From Spirochaetota bacterium (GTDB taxonomy: Bacteria > Spirochaetota > UBA4802 > UB4802), in NCBI GenBank assembly GCA_029907515.1, contig JARYLT010000003.1, forward strand, positions 3,448-67,447: 64,000 bases of DNA, given 5' to 3'. The translations under genes and the position numbers were made by a program. Positions 4,168 through 63,894 of this stretch are shown here, in pieces (position 1 is the first letter of the stretch; every line of letters starts with the position of its first letter). The notes under the pieces are model-generated. The model was not told where the DNA came from. It saw nothing but the letters and a program-made list of their open reading frames with translations, and did no database searches.

Positions 4168-6543
4168 TTAATACACTATATCCAACACTTCCTCAAAATA
4201 GCTTACAAAGCGCGCATCAATGCCTTTCTTGATATGTTCGGGTAATTCATCAAAATCTTTTTTATTCTCGGCAGGGTAAATGATGGTTTTAACCTTTGCT
4301 CGTTTAGCTGCAAGGGTCTTTTCTTTTACTCCTCCAATAGGAAGCACTCTTCCGGTAATGGTCAGCTCGCCGGTCATTGCCACACTTTTTTTAATGGGCT
4401 TATTTTTAGCAAGTGAGTACAGTGCCGTAGCCATAGTAATACCGGCTGAAGGACCATCCTTGGGGGTAGCGCCTGCTGGTACATGCAGGTGTATAAAATG
4501 ATTTTCAAAGAAATTGGGATCAATGCCAAACTGCTTAACTTTGGAGCGAATATATGAATAGGCAATTTCCGTTGATTCTTTCATAACATTGCCAAGCTGT
4601 CCTGTTTGTGTAAAACCCTTTGTTTTTGATGGTATTGCGGTTGCTTCAATATACAGCGTTGCACCACCCAGGCTTGTCCAGGCAAGCCCCATGACCACCC
4701 CCGGAATTGGCTTTTTATAAAGCGATTCATCGGTAAAACGGGGTTTGCCCAATAACTCTTCTAAATTTTGTGTTGTGACAGTAACTGTTGATGTTGTCCC
4801 TTCAATAATTTGTCGGGTGGCTTTTCGCATAATCTTTTTTATGTTATTTTCCAAACTTCGAACACCTGCTTCACGCGCATAGCCTTCTATAATATTTTTT
4901 AGAGCTGCTGTATCTATCTTAACCTCGTTTTTATGCAGCCCATGTTCTTTCATTTGCTTGGGGATTAGGTATCGCTTTGCTATCTCTAATTTTTCTTCCA
5001 GTATATAGCCGGACAGATGCATGATTTCCATACGGTCCATTAAAGGCAGGGGAATAGTGTCCAATTGATTGGCAGTTGCAATGAAAAGGATATTTGATAA
5101 ATCATAGCGTACATCTAAATAGTGATCAAGGAACTGTGAATTCTGTTCAGGATCAAGTACTTCCAGTAATGCTGATGCAGGATCGCCCTGAAAGCTTGCA
5201 CCTATCTTATCAATTTCATCAAGCATGATGACCGGATTTGATGTCTCTACCACCTTAAGACTCTGGATAATTTTCCCGGGCATTGCCCCAATGTATGTGC
5301 GACGGTGACCTTTGATTTCGGCTTCATCACGCATGCCACCAAGTGAAAAACGATAAAATTTTCGGTTCAATGCTGCAGCCACTGATTTGCCAATAGATGT
5401 TTTACCAACACCGGGAGGTCCAACAAAACAAATTATTGAACCGGTAATACTGCCCTTCTTTTTACCAGCGCTGATAAATTCTAAAATGCGGTCTTTTATA
5501 TCCTGTAGTCCATAGTGATCACGGTCCAGAATTTTTTTTGCTTTGTTAATATCGTAATTATCTTCTGAATAGATGCCCCATGGCAAGGATGTAAGCCAGT
5601 CTAAGTAATTGCGGCTTACTCCATATTCTGCTGAATGTGGCTCAAGAACTTTTAATTTTTCCAATTCTTCGTTAAAGCGCTTTAATGCCTCTTCGCTTAA
5701 TTTAAGTTTTTTTACACGTTCCTCAAACTTTTCAATTTCAGAAGTTTTTTCATCTTTTTCAAGTCCCAGCTCTTTTTTGATTTCCTTAAGCTGTTCCCGT
5801 AAAAAGAATTCCTTCTGGTTTTTGGCAATGCGTTCTTCTATTTGCTGTGAAATTTTTTTCTGTAGTTTTGATAATTCTAATTCTTTCTTTAAAAGCAGCA
5901 AAACCTTCTCAACACGTGCTTTAACATCAAATGTTTCAAGGATGTCCTGCACCTCTGCTGGTTCTGCTGAGGTAAGTGATGCAACAAAATCAGCTAATTT
6001 TCCTGGGTCTTCTAAACTAAAGCGGTTAAGGAAAAGTTTAAGCTCTTCTTGAAACAGGGAATTTGATTTAATTAATTCCTTAACGGAAGAAAGAATTGCT
6101 GCAGAATATGCTTTCATCTCATCGGTTGGTTCAAGCTCGGGTTCGTAATAGTGGTCCACTTTCCAGCGAATAATGGGTTGATCGGTTACTATCTGCTGTA
6201 AGGTGAAGCGCTTTAATGCATTCACCATTACCTGTATGGTGTTTTCATCAATAGGTGCTATCTTCAATACTTTAATGGTAACTCCCACCTTGTAAAGGTC
6301 ATCAGATGTAACCATGCCTTCACGCTGATTCTGGATTAACACTACACCGCCAATTTTGTGGTCCGATTCGGCAATGGCACGCGCAGTATTCAGCATAGTA
6401 TCACCGGTAAGAACCAGTGGTACCATCATGCCAGGGAATATCGGCCTGTGGGATATGGGTATAATGGGGATAATTTCGGGCAAAATTTCAGATGGCAGAA
6501 TCAGGTGTTTTGACTCAACAGCATGGCTTGAATCATCCGGCAT
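4168..6543 (-). CDS. lon: ATP-dependent Lon protease
   Basis: 791 aa with an N-terminal LON domain, AAA+ Walker A (GPPGVGKTS) and a C-terminal Ser protease domain (PKDGPSAG). AGAGGTGA SD. Confidence 0.95.
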   Translation of the reverse strand: MPDDSSHAVESKHLILPSEILPEIIPIIPISHRPIFPGMMVPLVLTGDTMLNTARAIAESDHKIGGVVLIQNQREGMVTSDDLYKVGVTIKVLKIAPIDENTIQVMVNALKRFTLQQIVTDQPIIRWKVDHYYEPELEPTDEMKAYSAAILSSVKELIKSNSLFQEELKLFLNRFSLEDPGKLADFVASLTSAEPAEVQDILETFDVKARVEKVLLLLKKELELSKLQKKISQQIEERIAKNQKEFFLREQLKEIKKELGLEKDEKTSEIEKFEERVKKLKLSEEALKRFNEELEKLKVLEPHSAEYGVSRNYLDWLTSLPWGIYSEDNYDINKAKKILDRDHYGLQDIKDRILEFISAGKKKGSITGSIICFVGPPGVGKTSIGKSVAAALNRKFYRFSLGGMRDEAEIKGHRRTYIGAMPGKIIQSLKVVETSNPVIMLDEIDKIGASFQGDPASALLEVLDPEQNSQFLDHYLDVRYDLSNILFIATANQLDTIPLPLMDRMEIMHLSGYILEEKLEIAKRYLIPKQMKEHGLHKNEVKIDTAALKNIIEGYAREAGVRSLENNIKKIMRKATRQIIEGTTSTVTVTTQNLEELLGKPRFTDESLYKKPIPGVVMGLAWTSLGGATLYIEATAIPSKTKGFTQTGQLGNVMKESTEIAYSYIRSKVKQFGIDPNFFENHFIHLHVPAGATPKDGPSAGITMATALYSLAKNKPIKKSVAMTGELTITGRVLPIGGVKEKTLAAKRAKVKTIIYPAENKKDFDELPEHIKKGIDARFVSYFEEVLDIVY

Positions 6544-6656
6544 AGGGTTTCACCTCTTGTGATCTGTTTTTTAGTTATAATGTAGCATTGCAGGTTTAAA
6601 AATCAAGATAATTTCTTTATAGCTGGTTCTCTTTGGAAGCAGGCAAACATACTGGG

Positions 6657-6678
6657 TTTTAGTCCCATAGGACTAAAA
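6657..6678. promoter_or_regulatory. perfect 9-bp inverted repeat TTTTAGTCC-CATA-GGACTAAAA in the lon/FecR divergent promoter region
   Basis: Seen directly in the sequence, about 115 bp upstream of the lon start. Candidate operator. It does not match the CIRCE consensus. Confidence 0.3.
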
Positions 6679-6783
6679 ATTTTGAAAAAAAGACTTTACA
6701 TATTAATTGAACAAAATAATATAACAAAAGCGAGAAGTACATTATATTATCATTAAAACTACATAGTTCCGTGGAGTTTAACA

Positions 6784-7776
6784 ATGAAGCTAAAACACTA
6801 CTCCATTCCTTTTTTAATAGCTTTTGTAGCATGCTGTATACATGCCTGTAAAGGGCAGCAGAAAACACTTTCTGGTGTTATAATTTTTGCACAAGGTGAT
6901 GTGACTATTATTCAGAATGATGTCAATAAACCAGCAGGTATAGGAACCAATGTTAATCCCAATGATATCATTGCAACCGGCAATCAATCTATTGCTGTTG
7001 TTCAGATAGCAGAAAGAGCAATTGCCCATATTGGCAGTAACAGTAGGGTTGTTGTACAATCGCTGCTTGATACATCAGTGACACTGTATCTTGAAAAAGG
7101 TGAGGTTATATCTAAAGTAGAGCGTCTTCAAAAAGGGCAGGAGTATTCAGTTAAAGCACGTTCTGTAGTTGCCAGTGTTCGCGGTACACAATTTTTGGTG
7201 AAAGCTGATGAAAAGATTGGCAAGGTAGCTGTTCATACGGGCAGTGTCAGTGTAAAGCCAGTTATAGAAGCTGAAGAGGTAGAAGTAGCAGAAATCAAGG
7301 AAACAATAGTGGAAGGGGGCAAGGAGGCGATAGTAACTGTTGAAGGAGAGAAAGCTGCTGAAGAGGTGCCGGTTGAAGTAAAGGAAATTTCTGTAAAAGA
7401 TAAAGTGAAAATAGAAACTGCTGCAAAAATAGAAGTTGTACCACAGGAAGTTTTAACAAAACCAGAATCGCTTGAAAAGGTTCAGGAAACCATAAAACAG
7501 AATGTGGAAAAAATAGAAAAGATTGAGACGTTAAGTGAAAGTGAAATTAAACAGCAGATAAAGAAAGAACGAATAGAACGCTTGATGCAGCAAAAAACGC
7601 GTACACTGGAAGAGATTAAAGAAGCATGTGAACGTATAGATGTTGTAAAACTGTATTCGGGCAAGACAATACAGGGAGCAATAATAGATAGATCTAATGA
7701 TTACAAGATATTAACTACAACAGGCGTTGTTGAGGTGCCAAAGAAAAGTGTGCGTTCAGTTAGTGTATTGCGGTAA
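6784..7776 (+). CDS. FecR-domain lipoprotein
   Basis: Signal peptide with cysteines (LIAFVACCIHAC), a FecR-like beta-rich N-terminal domain (GDVTII...VHTGSVSV) and a Glu/Lys-rich coiled middle region. GGAG SD. Confidence 0.7.
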   Translation: MKLKHYSIPFLIAFVACCIHACKGQQKTLSGVIIFAQGDVTIIQNDVNKPAGIGTNVNPNDIIATGNQSIAVVQIAERAIAHIGSNSRVVVQSLLDTSVTLYLEKGEVISKVERLQKGQEYSVKARSVVASVRGTQFLVKADEKIGKVAVHTGSVSVKPVIEAEEVEVAEIKETIVEGGKEAIVTVEGEKAAEEVPVEVKEISVKDKVKIETAAKIEVVPQEVLTKPESLEKVQETIKQNVEKIEKIETLSESEIKQQIKKERIERLMQQKTRTLEEIKEACERIDVVKLYSGKTIQGAIIDRSNDYKILTTTGVVEVPKKSVRSVSVLR

Positions 7777-7799
7777 TGTTTGGAAGTTTATTTAATTTC

Positions 7800-8190
7800 T
7801 CATTTTGACACTGTACATGTATCCGTTGCTATTTTGACGTCGAACATTAATGCTTTGTCATTTTGTTGATTAATAATTATACAATGTCATTTCGGCAACG
7901 AACATGTCTACTTTGTCATTTCGACGAACTCAGTGAGGAGAAATCTTAATACAAATTTATACACATGGAGGGTAGCAATAGTAATAACAGCACCGTAATA
8001 GCAATCCCCAGATGAGCGTGGCAATCACAATGTGTGGCTGCCATCCTGAGTGAAGTAAATCATCGTGGGGAGTTCCGATTTTATCGGGACACCAAAGGAT
8101 ATTGTCGTTAATGGCTTAAAAGATTCTTCGTCCCGACTTCATCGGGACTTAGAATGATGGTATCTTTACGTCATTGCAAGTTCTAAAGCA
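7800..8190. repeat. intergenic repeat block: about 5 degenerate tandem units (period ~29 bp) of TGTCATTTCGACGAAC, then GTGAGGAGAAATCT and short GC hairpins (CCGATTTTATCGG, GTCCCGACTTCATCGGGAC)
   Basis: Unit starts near 7801, 7830, 7857, 7886 and 7915. The terminal copy GTCATTTCGACGAACTCAGTGAGGAGAAATCT recurs in inverted orientation at 17161-17200. Non-coding. Confidence 0.6.
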
Positions 8191-8274
8191 GCGGGGCAAT
8201 CTCATTAATTAGTATAAATGTATTATATCAATTAGTCTTATGATGAAATACATTATATTTTATAGGAGGGTATT

Positions 8275-9378
8275 ATGAAAAATAAATGTAATATTAACTC
8301 CTTAGCGCAGTCAGTTATTGTATGTGTCATGCTTGGCATGGGGTTTATGTCAAATTCTGCTTTTGCAGAATCCGTATTTTTGAAGGATGGAAGTATCATT
8401 GAAGGTGATATAGTCAAGGAGACCGATAAAGCTACGACAGTAAAGACAAGGGAAGGGAAGACCGTAACGATACAGCGGAAGGATATTTTGAGGACGCTGG
8501 TAAATGAAAGCTATAAGACACGGATGTATATTATGAAAAGTAACAAGGAGGTATTAGGGGTATACATTGTAGAAGAGGATAATGAGAGCTATACGTACAG
8601 GACAGAGTTGCAATCAGCGGAGGAATATAAGATAAATAAGGACGATGTATTATTTGTTTCAAAGATACCGCCCAAGGATTTTATAGATGAGGAGGTACAG
8701 AAGAAAGCAGCGGAATTAGGGATAAAGAAGAAGTATACACGGGAAGAGAACCTGAAATGGCGCGCACCGTTTATACGGGTGGCGTATTCAAATTATGTGC
8801 AATATGATGATGAACTGGAATATTTATTTCCAGAACCAGCGCCAGCTTTACTATTAGATATTTTTTTCTGGCGTTTTAGAGATGAAAAGGGTAATGGATT
8901 TGATATAATGGGAAGGTTACGTAATCATGGAAGAAAGGCTGATTTGAATGGTGGTGATCCAAGAACTTCAAAATATTCACAATTATATAATATAACAATA
9001 TCACCTACACTTCCATATAGTACTGATTTCTTTTTGAATTCAATCTCAGGAGGGTTACGATATGCATATGGGTGGTATGTTGGATATGTAATGGTACAGC
9101 CGTATATATTTGCATTATATCAATATGGGATGATTAATTCAATGATTTCTTATAATGATGGTGTAAGTGATAAAACAAAAGATATAAATATGAACACACA
9201 TGGTTATCAGGCGGGAGCAGGTGTTGATGTAGGGCTTTTTTCCTACTTTGGAATATTTATTGAAGTAAGCTACGGGTATGCAAAAGCCAAATTCGCTAAT
9301 GGTGAAGCTTATAATTTTGATGGCATTTCAGTATATTATGGAGTAAGCTGGTGCACATCGTTTGGTTTGATTGAGTGA
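8275..9378 (+). CDS. secreted hypothetical protein, paralog A (possible outer-membrane beta-barrel C-terminus)
   Basis: GGAGGG SD. Signal peptide with cleavage at SAFA-ES. Residues from about 30 to 167 are identical to the downstream paralog. The C-terminal half is rich in Tyr/Gly/aromatic alternation and ends ...GVSWCTSFGLIE. Confidence 0.8.
   Translation: MKNKCNINSLAQSVIVCVMLGMGFMSNSAFAESVFLKDGSIIEGDIVKETDKATTVKTREGKTVTIQRKDILRTLVNESYKTRMYIMKSNKEVLGVYIVEEDNESYTYRTELQSAEEYKINKDDVLFVSKIPPKDFIDEEVQKKAAELGIKKKYTREENLKWRAPFIRVAYSNYVQYDDELEYLFPEPAPALLLDIFFWRFRDEKGNGFDIMGRLRNHGRKADLNGGDPRTSKYSQLYNITISPTLPYSTDFFLNSISGGLRYAYGWYVGYVMVQPYIFALYQYGMINSMISYNDGVSDKTKDINMNTHGYQAGAGVDVGLFSYFGIFIEVSYGYAKAKFANGEAYNFDGISVYYGVSWCTSFGLIE
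8362..8773 (+). repeat. 412-bp segment identical to 9631-10042 (shared 5' coding module of the tandem paralogs)
   Basis: Base-for-base identity on direct comparison of the two stretches, with sharp divergence on both flanks. Confidence 0.85.
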
Positions 9379-9543
9379 ATTTGATTTAATTACTAATGAT
9401 TTTGTTTTGTATCTCTTAATAATTTTATATAAAGAATGGTCAGTTAAAAACAGTGATATGCATGCAGGGTATATAAAATAACTAATGAATAATAATAGCC
9501 TGGGACATTGAAATAGGTAGATAATTTGTATAGGAGAGCTTTC

Positions 9544-10647
9544 ATGAAGAAGATAGCAAGAGACTTTTTTTTAGCACACATACTTATAGTTAGTTGTGTT
9601 ATTGTATGGTTTATGTTTTCAGGGAATGTATTTGCAGAATCCGTATTTTTGAAGGATGGAAGTATCATTGAAGGTGATATAGTCAAGGAGACCGATAAAG
9701 CTACGACAGTAAAGACAAGGGAAGGGAAGACCGTAACGATACAGCGGAAGGATATTTTGAGGACGCTGGTAAATGAAAGCTATAAGACACGGATGTATAT
9801 TATGAAAAGTAACAAGGAGGTATTAGGGGTATACATTGTAGAAGAGGATAATGAGAGCTATACGTACAGGACAGAGTTGCAATCAGCGGAGGAATATAAG
9901 ATAAATAAGGACGATGTATTATTTGTTTCAAAGATACCGCCCAAGGATTTTATAGATGAGGAGGTACAGAAGAAAGCAGCGGAATTAGGGATAAAGAAGA
10001 AGTATACACGGGAAGAGAACCTGAAATGGCGCGCACCGTTTATGCGCTTTGGGTATTCAAACTTTGGAGTTTATATAGATTCTGATATTAATGATGCATA
10101 TTCCGAGAGCCGTAACATTAATGCTTTCATTGATATATTCCCCTGGCGGTTTAGAAATGAAAGTGGGAATGGATTTGATGCCATGATAAGAGCACGTTTT
10201 GTAGGCAATTTTGATGAAATTAATCCCACTGATCCAAGAACACAAACATTTTTAAAATTATATCAAGTTACTATAGACGAAAGCTATGAATCCAAACTCA
10301 ACATTGGTCAGATTTGTGGTGGAGTCAGATATGCCTACAGCATGTATTATGGTGTTTTGATACAACCCTATGTGTATGGATTATTGCAATTGTTTGTATT
10401 TCATGATGAAATAAAAATTGAATCTCTTAATTCAAATGCTATTGATGAACAGGTGTCATCGTCAAAATTGGGATACCAGTTTGGTGCAGGAGTTGATTTT
10501 GGAATAACCTCATACGTTGGTTTGTTTATTGAAGGAATGTATAGCTACATTGGCGCAAAATTTAAAGATGGAAAGACAAGAAATGTTGATGGTTACTATA
10601 TTTACTATGGAGTAACCTGGCGTACATCGTATGGTTTGATTGAGTGA
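9544..10647 (+). CDS. secreted hypothetical protein, paralog B
   Basis: ATG at 9544 has a TAGGAGAG SD; the ORF-track TTG start at 9526 is less likely. Signal peptide cleaved at NVFA-ES. The next ~137 aa are identical to paralog A, and the C-terminal half is diverged (ends GVTWRTSYGLIE). Confidence 0.8.
   Translation: MKKIARDFFLAHILIVSCVIVWFMFSGNVFAESVFLKDGSIIEGDIVKETDKATTVKTREGKTVTIQRKDILRTLVNESYKTRMYIMKSNKEVLGVYIVEEDNESYTYRTELQSAEEYKINKDDVLFVSKIPPKDFIDEEVQKKAAELGIKKKYTREENLKWRAPFMRFGYSNFGVYIDSDINDAYSESRNINAFIDIFPWRFRNESGNGFDAMIRARFVGNFDEINPTDPRTQTFLKLYQVTIDESYESKLNIGQICGGVRYAYSMYYGVLIQPYVYGLLQLFVFHDEIKIESLNSNAIDEQVSSSKLGYQFGAGVDFGITSYVGLFIEGMYSYIGAKFKDGKTRNVDGYYIYYGVTWRTSYGLIE
9631..10042 (+). 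repeat. second copy of the identical 412-bp module
   Basis: Identical to 8362-8773. Confidence 0.85.
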
Positions 10648-10831
10648 TAGGGATATATATTTATGAAGAATTGGTACAGTTATGGTATTTAATATAAACT
10701 TCAATTCAACTTCGTATTATCCGAACTTTAATTAAATAATATCCTTGACAGAATTTTTAAATACATTTAAATTAAATAAACATATTATTGGTTTATATAA
10801 TTATTTATTATTGAAATTTAAAAATAAACGG

Positions 10832-11656
10832 ATGTGGATTGAGCGAGAAATATCAAAAACATTAAGAGCATTTGCCCAAAAAAGGCCGGCAATTTTAGTA
10901 ACTGGCTGCAGACAATCAGGAAAAACCAGCTTGCTTAAACATGAATATCCTGAATTGTCCTATGTAACACTTGATGTTCCGTTATATGCTGAGGAAGCTA
11001 ACATAGCAGGTGATGTTTTTTTTAAAAAGATTCAAAAAGCCTTTAATCATAGATGAAATTCAATATGCACCACAGTTATTGCGTCATATAAAAGTTGAAA
11101 TTGATATTAACAGAAAAAACAACGGACAATTTTTTATAACAGGATCACAAAAATTTACACTCATGGAAGGTGTTTCCGAAAGCCTGGCAGGACGAGTGGG
11201 CATTCTTACATTACATACGCTTTCACTTAAGGAAATTCAAACAAAATATTTTTTCTTGATACCGGGCTTTTGTTATATCTTCTAGGAATAAAATCAGAAA
11301 AAGAATTGCTGAATAGTCCTTTGTTGGGAAATATTTTTGAAAGGTTGTGTTTGGGGCAAATAATACGTTATTATACCAATCAGGGTATTAATCCCACTAT
11401 ATATTTTTTTCAAGATGCATATGGTCATGAAATTGATTTTGTTATTCCTTCAGGAGAAAAACTTACCCTTATTGAGTGTAAATGGTTATTCCCTTTAGAT
11501 AAACGAAAAGAAATTGTTTCTAAGATTAAACAGATCATTCCAAAGGAAAAAATAAAAAAAATTGTGATTGTGAGTTCACAAAATGAAGAAGCTGCATTAG
11601 AAGATAAGCTTTTCCTTTATGGGTGTCATGATCCTGATAGATTTTTACGTGATTGA
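10832..11656 (+). pseudogene. DUF4143-type AAA ATPase, disrupted by two frameshifts in T-homopolymers
   Basis: Three consecutive ORF fragments together read like one ATPase (Walker A GCRQSGKTS, then PLIIDEIQ, then LAGRVGIL...LDTGLL...). Reading frame is restored by T8 to T7 at 11016-11023 and T6 to T7 at 11249-11254. Confidence 0.6.
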
Positions 11657-11731
11657 TAAAAAACTAATTGCCAAAATAATTTCTCTATGCAAATATAAAC
11701 GTACAATGTGGATTCCATTAGCAGGTATGGC

Positions 11732-12151
11732 ATGTCTACCGTTGAGCTAAAAATTAAAGGATATCATTTGGACCTTTTTGGTCGTGTAAGCAATCAGCGT
11801 TTTCTGGACTTTTTGGAAGATGCACGCTGGAGCTATTTAGATACTATTGGCCTTAACTATGATGAATTTGCAAAACGTGGCGTATTCCTTGCAGTGGTTA
11901 ATATAAATGTTAATTTCCGTGCGCCTTCATTTCTGGGTGATGTGCTCGTCATTGAAACAATGGTAGATAGGATTGGCAACCGCAGTATAACAGTTAAGCA
12001 AAAGATGTACAATAAAAAAACCGAACAAATAATCCTGGATGCCGAAGTGGTATATGTCATAGTGGATCTGGCAACAGGTAAATCCATACCAATAGATAAT
12101 GAAATGCGGCAACTGTGGCTGGAGCTATCGAACAAAAAAAATACACATTAA
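11732..12151 (+). CDS. acyl-CoA thioesterase, hotdog fold (YbgC/4HBT family)
   Basis: About 140 aa with the typical YbgC-like N-terminus (ELKIKGYHLDLFGRVSNQRFLDFLEDARW). Start chosen at the second Met, which has an AGG upstream. Confidence 0.75.
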   Translation: MSTVELKIKGYHLDLFGRVSNQRFLDFLEDARWSYLDTIGLNYDEFAKRGVFLAVVNINVNFRAPSFLGDVLVIETMVDRIGNRSITVKQKMYNKKTEQIILDAEVVYVIVDLATGKSIPIDNEMRQLWLELSNKKNTH

Positions 12152-16937: not shown

Positions 16938-17120
16938 AGAAGTATTTCCAGTATTATTATCGGTTATATGACGATAACAGAATACATAAAAACAGTATAC
17001 GAACATCAGCATGTAAAAACTGTAACAAAAAAGAACAGCATCATTGTACAAAAAGCTACTATAAACCGTTTCCACTCAAAATTCATGTAGACCTCCATTG
17101 AAAATAATATTTATTCTCTA

Positions 17121-17290
17121 TGTCATTTCGAATCCCGATTTTATCGGGATGCTGTTGTAAAATAAGATTTCTCCTCACTGCGTTCGTCGAAATGACAGTA
17201 TGAAAACATTCGTCGAAATGACAGTATAAAAACATTCGTCAAAATGACAGTGTGAAAATGTTCGTCGAAATGACAACGTATAAAACATTA
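17121..17290. repeat. second locus of the same repeat family: hairpin ATCCCGATTTTATCGGGAT, then AGATTTCTCCTCACTGCGTTCGTCGAAATGAC, then 4 tandem ~27-bp units (CGTCGAAATGACAGTATAAAAACATT)
   Basis: Reverse complement of the motif at 7912-7952. Unit starts near 17176, 17201, 17228 and 17255. Confidence 0.6.
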
Positions 17291-61207: not shown

Positions 61208-62284
61208 TTATGATTCTGGTAGCACGTCTATGTGCTTGCCGGTAAAACTTGCAATTTTGTCATTTATTTTTTCTACCTGCCTCTGGCTTCTTTCGTAGCT
61301 TGTCAGTGCATTACGAAGATGTTTCCCTGTTATACTGTATTCATCTTCAAAGTTTTTTAGTTGGTTTTGAACCGTTGCCAAGCCATTCAATATGTCTTTA
61401 GCTTTCTGTTCAATTTGGAGTCCTTTTAAACCATAGGCTATAGCCATTAAATATGCATAAAAACTATTAGGCGATACAGGTATAACTTTGCTTGCAAGGG
61501 CATAGTTGAAAATTTCATAGGCTTTATCGCTTACCGTATCATTGACAATTATTTCATAAAATACGTTTTCTGCAGGTATGTACATGAGTGCAAAATCATA
61601 CGTTCCTTCATCAGGGTTTATATATTTTTGACTGATTTCGTCAATACGCTGTTTTACCGCTCTTATAAACTCTTTTTTATACTGGTTTTTTTCATTATCT
61701 GATGTTGCTTTGATAATTCTCTGAAAACTTTCAAGAGGAAATTTGGAATCAACGGGAATAAGTTGACCACCAAGCTGAATAATTGCATCAACTTTAGTGC
61801 CATTTTTAAATGTATATTGCATATGGTAATTTTTTGCAGGCAAAAATTGCTTTAATAGTTCTTCAAGCAAGTACTCACCCAGGTTGCCGCGTAACTTTGG
61901 TGCAGCAAGTATATCCTGCAGTGAGGCAATATCATTGCCTATTTCCCGTATCTGGTGTGCTGTTTGTTCAAGGGAACCTAATTTGGTGTGTATATCGCTC
62001 ACAACTTTGTCGGTGTTGCTAAGTTGTTGGGTAATGTTTTTTTGTGTCGATGTAAGAATTTCGTTCACTGTAGAAATAAGCTGTGATAAGTTTCTTTGTT
62101 GATTTTCCAGTGCTGTATTGTACGCTTCAAGCTGTTTGGTTTTCAATTCAACAATCTGATTTTTTAAATCAATTAATTGAACGGCTAATTCACTGGAAGT
62201 ATCGCCTTTTGCAAAGAATAGTTTGAATGCAATTAACACAAGAAGTATTACTATAAACACCAGTGCAATGGTAGTGTATTCCAT
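61208..62284 (-). CDS. rmuC: DNA recombination protein RmuC
   Basis: N-terminal TM, long coiled coil and a C-terminal RmuC nuclease-like domain. Start at MEYTTIAL. Confidence 0.8.
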   Translation of the reverse strand: MEYTTIALVFIVILLVLIAFKLFFAKGDTSSELAVQLIDLKNQIVELKTKQLEAYNTALENQQRNLSQLISTVNEILTSTQKNITQQLSNTDKVVSDIHTKLGSLEQTAHQIREIGNDIASLQDILAAPKLRGNLGEYLLEELLKQFLPAKNYHMQYTFKNGTKVDAIIQLGGQLIPVDSKFPLESFQRIIKATSDNEKNQYKKEFIRAVKQRIDEISQKYINPDEGTYDFALMYIPAENVFYEIIVNDTVSDKAYEIFNYALASKVIPVSPNSFYAYLMAIAYGLKGLQIEQKAKDILNGLATVQNQLKNFEDEYSITGKHLRNALTSYERSQRQVEKINDKIASFTGKHIDVLPES

Positions 62285-62307
62285 AGTCAATCCCCAAAAA
62301 TTGATTT

Positions 62308-63894
62308 TCAATAATTACTATCGCCAGGCACTATACAATGACGCACCACACGCCATATATGGTAACCCAGCCTATCAATAAATCGTATTGCTTCAATAAA
62401 ATCCAGTGCGGTATGGGAATCAAGTTGACCTGTTGCAGTTTTTTTAAGAACTTCCACGCGCTCCAGTTTGCGAGAATTTGCCAGGTATTGCGATAGTTCC
62501 TGAATCTTTTCAACACTATCTATTGAACTTTCTGCCTTTAATGCTTTTTCAGATTCCACTAACTCAGTATTAAAATTCCATTTCATATCGGAAAAGTTTG
62601 TGCTGTTTTTTAAAAGAGAAACAATGTGTGCTTCCTGGCAGGCTTCAATAATGCTGTTTAAGTGATCAATGGCATGAAGTACTGAGATATGTTCATCATA
62701 AAGCTGTTTTTGCTGTGGTGGGGTTTTTACCTTGCTCATAAAATGTTTTGTTTCTTCAAGAGCTATTTGTGCTGTTTTAAGCCGGTGAGCTATATCGGTG
62801 CCGTTTTTCTGCAGCATGTCTTTGAGTATTTGAATAATATACAGCGCTATGTCCACCACCGTGCGTCGTGCTGTTTCAACCGCAATGGCTGGTGTTGTGG
62901 CTATGGCATCGTCTAAATGCTGTGTAAGATAAAACCTGGTATCGGCAAATAATGTTTTTAAAAAGCGCACAAACGGGGTAATGAATGGAAAAAACAGCAA
63001 CACGCCAATGACGTTAAAGAGTGTATGGAACACTGAAAGCTCTATTTCAGGAACTATCGCACCAAAAGCATTACATAAAGAAGAAAGTAGCGGCGATAGT
63101 TGTGGTAATAACACAAACAATACAAGTGCAGTCACTGTGTTAAAAAGAACATCAGCTACAATAATACGCCTGGTATCGGGAGTTGCTCCGATGGCGGCAA
63201 AAAGTATTGGTATAGACTTCCCTGCGTTCATGCCAATAACAAGAACCTGCCCCTGAAAAAGGCTGATAGTCCCGCTGCTCAATGCCACCAGTGCCAGCAC
63301 TACTGCAGCGCTTGATGATTGCATCAGGATTGTAAGTATGAAACCTATTGAAAATAGAAGCAGCCTGTCAGTAATTACATGTCCTGAGATGGCAGTAAAA
63401 TTAAATGACTGCGGCAACTGTGCCAGCCCCTGACGCATAATGGTAATACCAAAGAAAAGAAGGCCAAACCCGGCCAGCAATGAACCAATGTCAGATCGAT
63501 GGTCAGTATACAATATTTTTAATATGACACCGCAGGCAACAAAAAGAAGCGAAAATTGCCCAATGCTGTATTGAATGCCAAACATTGTTACAAGCCATGC
63601 TGTGGCAGTAGTGCCTACATTTGCCCCAAAGATGACTGCCAGTGCCTGTGGTATGGTGATGAGCCCTGCGCTTACAAATCCTATTGTTGCAATGGCTGTT
63701 GCACTGGATGCCTGGATGATCGTGGTTACCAGCATGCCGGTTAACAGTGCCTTAAACTTTCCACCAGTGAGGTTTGCAAGAATTTTTCTGAAACGAGGAC
63801 CTGCTAATTTCTGTATTGCTTCGGACATCAGGACAATGCCCAGAAGGAGTATCCCTATACCGCCAATTGCTGTAATTATATCTGAAATATTCAT
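62308..63894 (-). CDS. Na/Pi cotransporter family protein with C-terminal PhoU-like domain
   Basis: Two Na/Pi-cotransporter repeats (e.g. GANVGTTATAWLV and GMNAGKSI) plus a helical C-terminal domain. Confidence 0.85.
   Translation of the reverse strand: MNISDIITAIGGIGILLLGIVLMSEAIQKLAGPRFRKILANLTGGKFKALLTGMLVTTIIQASSATAIATIGFVSAGLITIPQALAVIFGANVGTTATAWLVTMFGIQYSIGQFSLLFVACGVILKILYTDHRSDIGSLLAGFGLLFFGITIMRQGLAQLPQSFNFTAISGHVITDRLLLFSIGFILTILMQSSSAAVVLALVALSSGTISLFQGQVLVIGMNAGKSIPILFAAIGATPDTRRIIVADVLFNTVTALVLFVLLPQLSPLLSSLCNAFGAIVPEIELSVFHTLFNVIGVLLFFPFITPFVRFLKTLFADTRFYLTQHLDDAIATTPAIAVETARRTVVDIALYIIQILKDMLQKNGTDIAHRLKTAQIALEETKHFMSKVKTPPQQKQLYDEHISVLHAIDHLNSIIEACQEAHIVSLLKNSTNFSDMKWNFNTELVESEKALKAESSIDSVEKIQELSQYLANSRKLERVEVLKKTATGQLDSHTALDFIEAIRFIDRLGYHIWRVVRHCIVPGDSNY

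Follow-up and report, generated by a model that had tools for sequence, protein, structure and literature searches.

Probable recent and recurrent gene conversion within one module of two tandem genes for predicted outer-membrane proteins in a spirochaete

The stretch of DNA analysed here (64,000 nucleotides (nt) of a Spirochaetota bacterium; assembly GCA_029907515.1, contig JARYLT010000003.1, positions 3,448 to 67,447 of the forward strand; hereafter the window, numbered from its first base) carries two adjacent genes, designated A and B, that encode predicted outer-membrane proteins of 367 amino acids (aa) each. The two genes share a block of 413 nt that is identical at every base and encodes an N-terminal module, and they are strongly diverged on both sides of it. 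Genes A and B are most likely old tandem paralogs whose identical block results from recent, recurrent interlocus gene conversion, a reading to which we assign a probability of roughly 0.8. The paralogs are old, the identical tract is domain-precise, synonymous divergence has been lost within it, module and barrel trees are incongruent, and both A/B mosaics and haplotypes lacking exactly one repeat unit occur among relatives. The features of the locus are listed below.

8275-9378, + strand: gene A, a predicted bipartite outer-membrane protein of 367 aa (signal peptide, N-terminal module, predicted A-type 8-stranded barrel)
8275-8367, + strand: signal peptide A, aa 1-31, with predicted cleavage between AFA and ES; diverged from B except for the last two codons
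8362-8774, + strand: copy 1 of the identical block (413 nt), which codes for all of the mature N-terminal module and has a synonymous divergence of 0 against copy 2
8775-9378, + strand: A-type barrel half, strands predicted at aa 163-362; 55% nt and 41% aa identity to the B-type half
9379-9543, no strand: intergenic spacer between genes A and B, 165 nt, A+T-rich
9544-10647, + strand: gene B, a paralog of 367 aa made up of signal peptide B, the N-terminal module also found in A, and a B-type barrel
9631-10043, + strand: identical block, copy 2, 413 nt; an exact match to copy 1
10044-10647, + strand: B-type barrel half, orthologous to the single gene at this locus in the more distant L003 and L005
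9313-9378, + strand: 3'-terminal conserved segment of gene A, covering the last strand and the tail, with 79% identity to 10582-10647; a second, shorter homology arm
10582-10647, + strand: conserved 3' end of gene B, the partner of 9313-9378

Extent and boundaries of the identical block

The block forms an exact direct repeat, 8362-8774 being identical to 9631-10043 at an offset of 1269 nt. An earlier reading of this DNA from the sequence alone (the sequence-only reading) had described it as 412 bp long and identical at every base; the identity holds, but the length is 413 nt, as positions 8774 and 10043 also match. The first mismatch past the block is A at 8775 against G at 10044, in the third position of codon 167, which reads ATA (Ile) in gene A and ATG (Met) in gene B. 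At its 5' end the block opens with TTT GCA, which encodes the F and A at -2 and -1 of the predicted signal-peptidase site (followed after the cut by ESVFLKDG), and at its 3' end it closes with the codons for WRAPF plus 2 nt, where the first barrel strand begins. It thus spans the whole mature N-terminal module, with domain-precise boundaries. Outside these boundaries identity falls to 50% at the nt level in the signal-peptide codons (7 of 29 aa) and to 55% nt and about 41% aa in the C-terminal halves; the divergence of both parts had been described correctly, as had the protein ends ...GVSWCTSFGLIE and ...GVTWRTSYGLIE. The longest identical run between A and B is these 413 nt, compared with a maximum of 41 in 2000 permutations in which the 302 differing columns were shuffled, and at the mismatch rate of the flanks a run of this length has a probability of about 1e-94.

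The sequence-only reading had also proposed to look for further partial copies of the module elsewhere in the genome; none is present within the 64-kb window when searched with 14-mers on both strands and with the motif ES[VIL]FLKDG. The other 367-aa open reading frame (ORF) of the window, at 61208-62311 on the - strand, was considered as a family member and rejected as RmuC-like and unrelated. A scan of 6500-11800 against Rfam (E<=1) returned no match, and thus no RNA element that would account for the block, and blastn searches of phage and plasmid collections in distant mode likewise returned no match, giving no sign of an origin in a mobile element.

Both genes are complete and intact: a start codon, a ribosome-binding site and a signal peptide are present in each. 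For gene B the ATG at 9544, the start of the homologues, was taken in place of the TTG at 9526 given in the ORF list; the gene B orthologue P0004 (GYA16_04480) starts at the same ATG, and gene B has its own GGAG ribosome-binding site within the spacer. A scan of 7700-10900 for promoters and terminators found no more sites than in shuffled sequence, and none between genes A and B.

Synonymous divergence and phylogeny

Between genes A and B, the synonymous divergence (dS, Nei-Gojobori estimates) is 0.000 for the module, compared with 2.5 for the signal peptide and 1.27 for the barrel. The same module accumulates synonymous changes between strains (dS 0.10-0.17): against the orthologues in L025 (JGI contig Ga0067045_1028068), where the tandem pair is also present and the backbone has 94.5% identity to the window, module dS is 0.11-0.17, no lower than the barrel dS of 0.10, and against the species-level relative L002 module dS reaches 1.2. 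Because module dS is normal between strains, the identity of the A and B copies does not come from constraint. Zero synonymous differences over ~95 synonymous sites would have a probability below 1e-4 even on the assumption that the last homogenisation dates from the split between the window and L025.

Neighbour-joining trees of the two parts of the proteins disagree. In the barrel tree, the A-type clade contains the A genes of the window, L025 and L070 together with more distant members, and the B-type clade contains the B genes of the window, L001 and L025, the second gene of L002, and the genes of L026, L071, L003, L005 and L035. In the module tree, both copies from the window, both copies from L025, the B copy of L001 and the module of L026 form one tight cluster nested among the B-type orthologues, which indicates that the A genes of this lineage carry a B-derived module. 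Across strains, the block is 95-97% identical in every A/B combination, in a star-like pattern, and 21 of 36 informative site pairs within it fail the four-gamete test; the window block differs from L025_A, L025_B, L001_B and L026 by 19, 12, 14 and 17 nt, respectively. Recent gene conversion or homogenisation between the copies, as proposed in the sequence-only reading, is therefore supported by a block dS of 0 against 1.3-2.5 in the flanks, by the disagreement of the trees, and by tandem pairs found elsewhere.

The same tandem pair in related assemblies

In L025, the two copies differ at 14 of 413 module positions and are flanked by sequence that is about 55% identical, with the same sharp boundaries as in the window. 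The second assembly with the pair, L001, is a 2618-nt contig of a metagenome-assembled genome (MAG) named 'Spirochaetes bacterium' (GCA_012798545.1) and matches the window at 8611-11233. Over barrel A, the spacer and signal peptide B it differs from the window at 1 of 856 nt (0 of 165 in the spacer 9379-9543), compared with 14 of 413 in block B and 4 of 164 in its part of block A; compared with each other, its two copies differ at about 6 of 164 positions. The L001 contig starts exactly 99 nt before the first copy-specific base, which probably reflects a break in the assembly graph caused by the repeat. These two independent assemblies thus confirm the tandem pair, with a module identity of 96-97% in place of 100%.

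Other pairs in the family have tracts of other extents. In L002 the signal peptide and the first ~300 nt are 83-98% identical between the two genes, after which identity drops to about 60%; in L008 the module is 88-100% identical; and in the two distant tandem pairs of L015 and L046 no homogenisation was detected. The single gene of L003 is a mosaic, resembling L002 gene 1 from -70 to +330 and L002 gene 2 over the rest. This variety of tracts suggests that conversion has been recurrent in the family and that tract ends are set by where homology stops.

Immediately after block B, at 10053-10071, two alleles are found among the relatives, encoding SNFGVY (window and L026) or SNIGIY (L001, L025, L039 and P0003). 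This site accounts for 7 of the 9 differences between the window and L001 in the whole barrel-B half, and it resembles a small recombination patch of its own at the edge of the tract.

Single-gene haplotypes

Three haplotypes occur on backbones that are 97-99% identical to the window: A+B, a fusion, and A only. The A+B form is that of the window, L025 and L001. The fusion, in which signal peptide A and the module are joined to barrel B, is exactly one repeat unit shorter and is found in L026, L027, L039 and L071/P0003; contigs from other samples thus carry alternative junctions, for which the sequence-only reading had proposed to look. L026 and L027, of 45.8 and 19.5 kb, come from two samples and span the fusion junction, and the fusion contigs are probably real genomes because these long contigs cross it. 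The A-only form is represented by L070, a single A-type gene with a B-type 3' end, in which the last ~66 nt of the gene and all downstream sequence are 99.1% identical to L026 and the junction lies within the shorter conserved segment 9313-9378/10582-10647. Each of the single-gene forms is derivable from an A+B ancestor by one homologous deletion. In the more distant species L003 and L005, a B-type gene only is present at the syntenic site.

Barrel A of L070 is 83% identical to that of the window on a backbone of 97.7% identity, which suggests that the barrels are unusually diverse among strains. The block had also been described as a possible cassette-like recombination substrate; no sign of a programmed cassette was found, and the description is tenable in the weaker sense that the block serves as a homology arm. 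L070 also carries, within its positions 1-120 and just upstream of its gene, a tandemly duplicated 35-nt sequence (AGTCTTATGATGAAATACATTATATTTTATAGGAG x2) in which the ribosome-binding region lies.

Protein architecture

An AlphaFold model of protein A (31 homologues) has a mean predicted local distance difference test (pLDDT) score of 87.4. In this model two five-stranded SH3/Sm-like small beta-barrels (aa 32-75 and 83-129) and linker helices (aa 133-147 and 156-161) make up the module, which is followed by an 8-stranded antiparallel barrel (aa 163-362) with pLDDT mostly above 90; the signal helix (aa 7-25) has low pLDDT. The signal-peptidase site was deduced from the conserved xFA/ES[VI]FLKDG of the homologue alignment, the slash marking the cut. 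In Foldseek searches against the PDB, the barrel of protein A matched Ail (3qrc, E 9.5e-6) and OmpX (1qj9, E 2.7e-4), and the matches to Ail, OmpX, OmpW, the OmpA transmembrane domain and NspA all had probability 1.0. The strands of the modelled barrel are joined by short turns on one side and by longer loops on the other. Where a C-terminal beta-signal with a final aromatic residue would be looked for, the proteins end in WCTSFGLIE and WRTSYGLIE, with an aromatic residue five positions from the end, and distant homologues end in RTSYL or RTSFI. The confident model and the OmpX/Ail/OmpW matches support the prediction that proteins A and B are outer-membrane barrel proteins; the sequence-only reading had described them as looking like surface or outer-membrane proteins.

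In even-stranded outer-membrane barrels both ends are periplasmic, and an 8-stranded barrel would accordingly put the module in the periplasm. Two points count against these assignments: the Pfam family PF13505 (OMP_b-brl) scores only 16.4 and 12.6 bits, below its gathering threshold of 28.7, and the periplasmic placement of the module, like any anchoring role, is deduced only from barrel topology rules and an analogy with the Tpr proteins of Treponema. PF13505 has a precomputed match in two family members (P0009 and P0014), and the module-bearing relative P0081 passes its threshold with 30.3 bits. Divergence between A and B peaks in the predicted outward loop L1 (2 of 14 residues identical) and in the distal parts or tips of strands 5 and 6. 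With regard to the antigenic or functional variation suggested in the sequence-only reading, the identical part is not the variable or antigenic one; it is the conserved module, which would be expected in the periplasm, and the variation sits in the barrels.

At the level of protein sequence, conservation in the family is highest in the module. The module's first SH3-like domain matches the NCBIfam model NF047433 ('Lepto_7_Nterm', the N-terminal domain of LA_0442/LA_0875) above the cutoff of 43 bits in both proteins (46.9 bits over aa 24-74 of the gene A product and 49.4 bits over aa 20-74 of the gene B product). With a threshold of E<=1e-10, an exhaustive HMMER search identified module homologues in 264 protein clusters. 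Of the 24 strongest matches (E<=1e-30), about half cover module and barrel, and most of the others cover the module only (aa ~25-135); the sampled module-only matches have FN3 repeats, FN3 repeats plus an outer-membrane protein (OMP) barrel, or an FGE-sulfatase domain as their C-terminal part. The joining of the module to such various C-terminal parts suggests that the identical block corresponds to one mobile, reusable protein module. An exact-sequence look-up in public assemblies returned no record of protein A. Where contigs bearing homologues have an informative taxon label, it is Spirochaetota, Spirochaetes, Spirochaetia, Leptospirales or Leptospira, with the exception of one Firmicutes MAG contig.

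Alternative explanations

The perfect identity may in part be a product of assembly, if the copies in fact differ by a few percent and one consensus was threaded twice through bubble popping or a mixed-read consensus. This explanation is improbable, though it has a real chance of being correct. Several points weigh against the favoured reading, some of them in favour of this explanation: copies differ from each other in the other assemblies (14/413 in L025, about 6/164 in L001); the identity is read from assembled sequence, which the assembler could have sharpened; the window block is about equally distant from all relatives, which singles out no copy as the donor of the last conversion; and short-read metagenome assemblies are the source of the fusion and A-only contigs, so that mis-joins across the repeat are conceivable. 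The start of L001, 99 nt before the first copy-specific base, is as expected of a de Bruijn graph break, and several strains with backbones 94-99% identical co-occur in the metagenomes. However, when a repeat collapses, the usual outcome is a single copy or a broken contig, whereas here two full copies lie inside a 64-kb contig; both are flanked by intact, in-frame sequence, with no Ns or frame errors; and copies that differ every ~30 nt form distinct graph paths, which were kept apart in L025. If the assembly had contributed in this way, the 'very recent event' would become 'ongoing homogenisation at 96-97%', and the concerted evolution would remain real. There is a negligible chance that the data are explained without exchange between the copies, either by strong purifying selection on the module or by a tandem duplication of very recent date. 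The module is indeed conserved in protein sequence (aa identity to that of the window is about 60-95% in closer full-length relatives and about 35-50% in distant ones), but selection at the protein level leaves synonymous differences, and module dS is 0.11-0.17 when strains are compared and 1.2 when species are. The split between the window and L025 is younger than the tandem pair, yet no difference separates the window copies; with dS above 1, barrels and signal peptides are saturated, which makes the duplication old; and the incongruence of the module and barrel trees speaks against both forms of this explanation. A nucleotide-level function constraining every site of the block is contradicted by the variation between strains, and the block has no Rfam match.

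The locus could also be a programmed variation system, in which the module is kept as a recombination handle and barrels are frequently switched, fused or lost for antigenic or phage-receptor variation. The three haplotypes on near-identical backbones, with junctions in the two homology arms, would fit such a system, as would the 83% identity of barrel A alleles on backbones of 97-99% and the concentration of A/B divergence in predicted outward loops. We nevertheless consider it very unlikely, as the 64-kb window contains no silent or promoterless cassettes and no further copies, both genes are complete with start codon, ribosome-binding site and signal peptide of their own, and no recombinase or special initiating sequence adjoins them. 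The deletions are one-way, the variants are seen in comparisons between samples, and the recombining segment is the conserved part. A related idea, a 'barrel-swap' locus in which the module and the 3' end are maintained as homology arms and cells in populations of this free-living or bioreactor spirochaete often gain, fuse or drop surface barrels (A+B, barrel B behind promoter and signal A, or A only), also seems unlikely, with somewhat better prospects; if true, it would represent recombination-driven surface variation in a non-pathogen, in an uncharacterised OMP family, serving for example in escape from barrel-binding phages.

Proposed mechanism

Gene conversion between old paralogs, the reading favoured here, would proceed by RecA-type recombination between the tandem module segments, mostly as non-reciprocal conversion with an occasional unequal exchange or deletion. 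The tract would be limited to the module by the collapse of homology in the signal-peptide codons and at the first barrel strand. In the periplasm, the module may act as a common anchor or partner-binding part, and if both modules share a partner, their homogenisation would be harmless or even favoured. The barrels would bear surface-exposed, fast-diverging loops, whose divergence may be under surface-directed selection. The block and the shorter conserved 3' end could then serve as the homology arms for the deletions that lead to single-gene haplotypes.

Comparison with known systems

The closest mechanistic precedent is the LigA/LigB pair of pathogenic Leptospira, tandem spirochaete paralogs for surface or outer-membrane proteins with (nearly) identical 5' parts and unique 3' parts. 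The two lig genes are identical from -266 to +1890, which has been attributed to gene conversion favoured by their tandem arrangement (PMC7821625). The Lig identity includes the promoter and signal sequence, whereas at the present locus the upstream sequences are unrelated, the signal peptides are 50% identical at the nt level and the cleavage site is where the tract begins. The Lig products are Big_2-repeat lipoproteins that have a surface-exposed part in common, whereas proteins A and B have in common an SH3-like module that precedes a barrel and is predicted to be periplasmic. No Big_2 match was found in proteins A and B, and the likeness to Lig is mechanistic only.

In architecture, the closest proteins are the Tpr/MOSP proteins of Treponema (TprC/D/I), in which a periplasmic N-terminal domain is joined to a C-terminal membrane barrel. 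Between TprD and TprD2 the N-terminal domains are identical and the barrels highly divergent, and gene conversion has been proposed for the family (PMC6016234). The small 8-stranded OmpX/Ail-like barrel predicted here contrasts with the larger, trimeric, porin-like barrels of the Tpr proteins, and TprD and TprD2 are alleles of one locus, whereas genes A and B are adjacent. In Pfam and NCBIfam scans neither MOSP_N nor MOSP_C matched proteins A and B, for which no sequence relationship to Tpr was found. In Helicobacter pylori, RecA-dependent recombination among OMP paralogs yields chimeras (babA/B, babB/A) and segmental concerted evolution (PMC5483490). The bab/sab/hop genes resemble the present pair as OMP paralogs with conserved ends that recombine into chimeras; they differ in that the bab loci are dispersed, diverge in the mid-part of the gene, belong to an unrelated family and are found in a host pathogen, whereas genes A and B are in tandem.

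The Leptospira proteins with the NF047433 domain are alike in that the domain heads paralogs with different C-terminal parts. The domain covers only about 55 residues, whereas the module described here consists of two small barrels and a linker and is followed by the 8-stranded barrel; a literature search on LA_0442, LA_0875, LA_3334 and LB_137 found nothing relevant. OmpX, Ail, OmpW, NspA and the OmpA transmembrane domain share the fold predicted for aa 163-362, with sequence similarity below Pfam thresholds, but small OMPs of the OmpX and Ail type are without an N-terminal soluble module and the periplasmic domain of OmpA is C-terminal. The vlsE, tprK, pilE/pilS and msp2 cassette systems consist of an expression site and silent donors, in contrast to the two complete genes found in 64 kb here. 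Systems of the vlsE/tprK type moreover exchange a variable surface region, whereas the part exchanged here is the most conserved one and is predicted to be periplasmic, with the variable barrel loops outside.

Neighbourhood of the locus

The gene upstream of gene A (6784-7776) encodes a product that has a FecR domain and, at scores below the NCBIfam cutoffs, a resemblance to the Leptospira adhesins Lsa33 and Lsa19; the last ~45 residues of this product (..GKTIQGAIIDRSNDYKILTTTGVVEVPKKSVRSVSV) have the appearance of another small SH3-like unit in the style of the first domain of the module. Between this gene and gene A, a ~400-nt stretch at 7798-8204 is absent from L026 and L027 and present in L025. 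It includes a 35-nt element at 7914-7948 (GTCATTTCGACGAACTCAGTGAGGAGAAATCT), an inverted copy of which (97% identical) is located at 17163-17197 and adjoins an array of ~30-nt units with TTCGTCGAAATGACA at 17190-17290. Related hairpin-forming sequences lie near both element sites (CCGATTTTATCGGGA at about 8076-8090 and TCCCGATTTTATCGGGA at about 17134-17150). The repeats at 7798-8204 and 17100-17290 look like short repeats resembling miniature inverted-repeat transposable elements (MITEs) that bracket a ~9-kb segment, and the ends of the L070 contig fall in these MITE-like repeats.

Downstream of gene B, an AAA_14/DUF4143 ATPase gene (10745-11656) is split into three overlapping ORFs (10745-11056, 11010-11285 and 11270-11656) and is therefore probably a pseudogene; the gene is intact in L002, where it encodes 393 aa. 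The window sequence at 10646-11023 is shared with L001, L002 and L003, and a different stretch of ~870 nt takes its place in L025, L026 and L070. Further upstream, L025 has about 720 nt (~605-1323) that are extra relative to the window at ~4137 and without a match in the window; this stretch is also present in L027 and is intergenic, just 3' of the Lon protease gene (4168-6543, - strand).

Implications

Partial concerted evolution of tandem OMP genes is already known, and what this locus usefully adds is the domain-precise tract, the three haplotypes and the widespread module. It represents a clean case of domain-precise partial concerted evolution, in which one module is identical and the rest of two old paralogs diverges freely. 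The repeat probably accounts for at least one break in a short-read assembly (MAG contig L001) and for the gene-content polymorphism at this locus among close strains. In practical terms, the module is unsuited to orthology or strain typing, and MAG gene counts at such loci are unreliable. The pattern known from the Lig and Tpr proteins of pathogenic spirochaetes is hereby extended to uncultured, apparently environmental Leptospirales-like spirochaetes, in which an uncharacterised two-domain N-terminal module heads hundreds of clusters of secreted or outer-membrane proteins.

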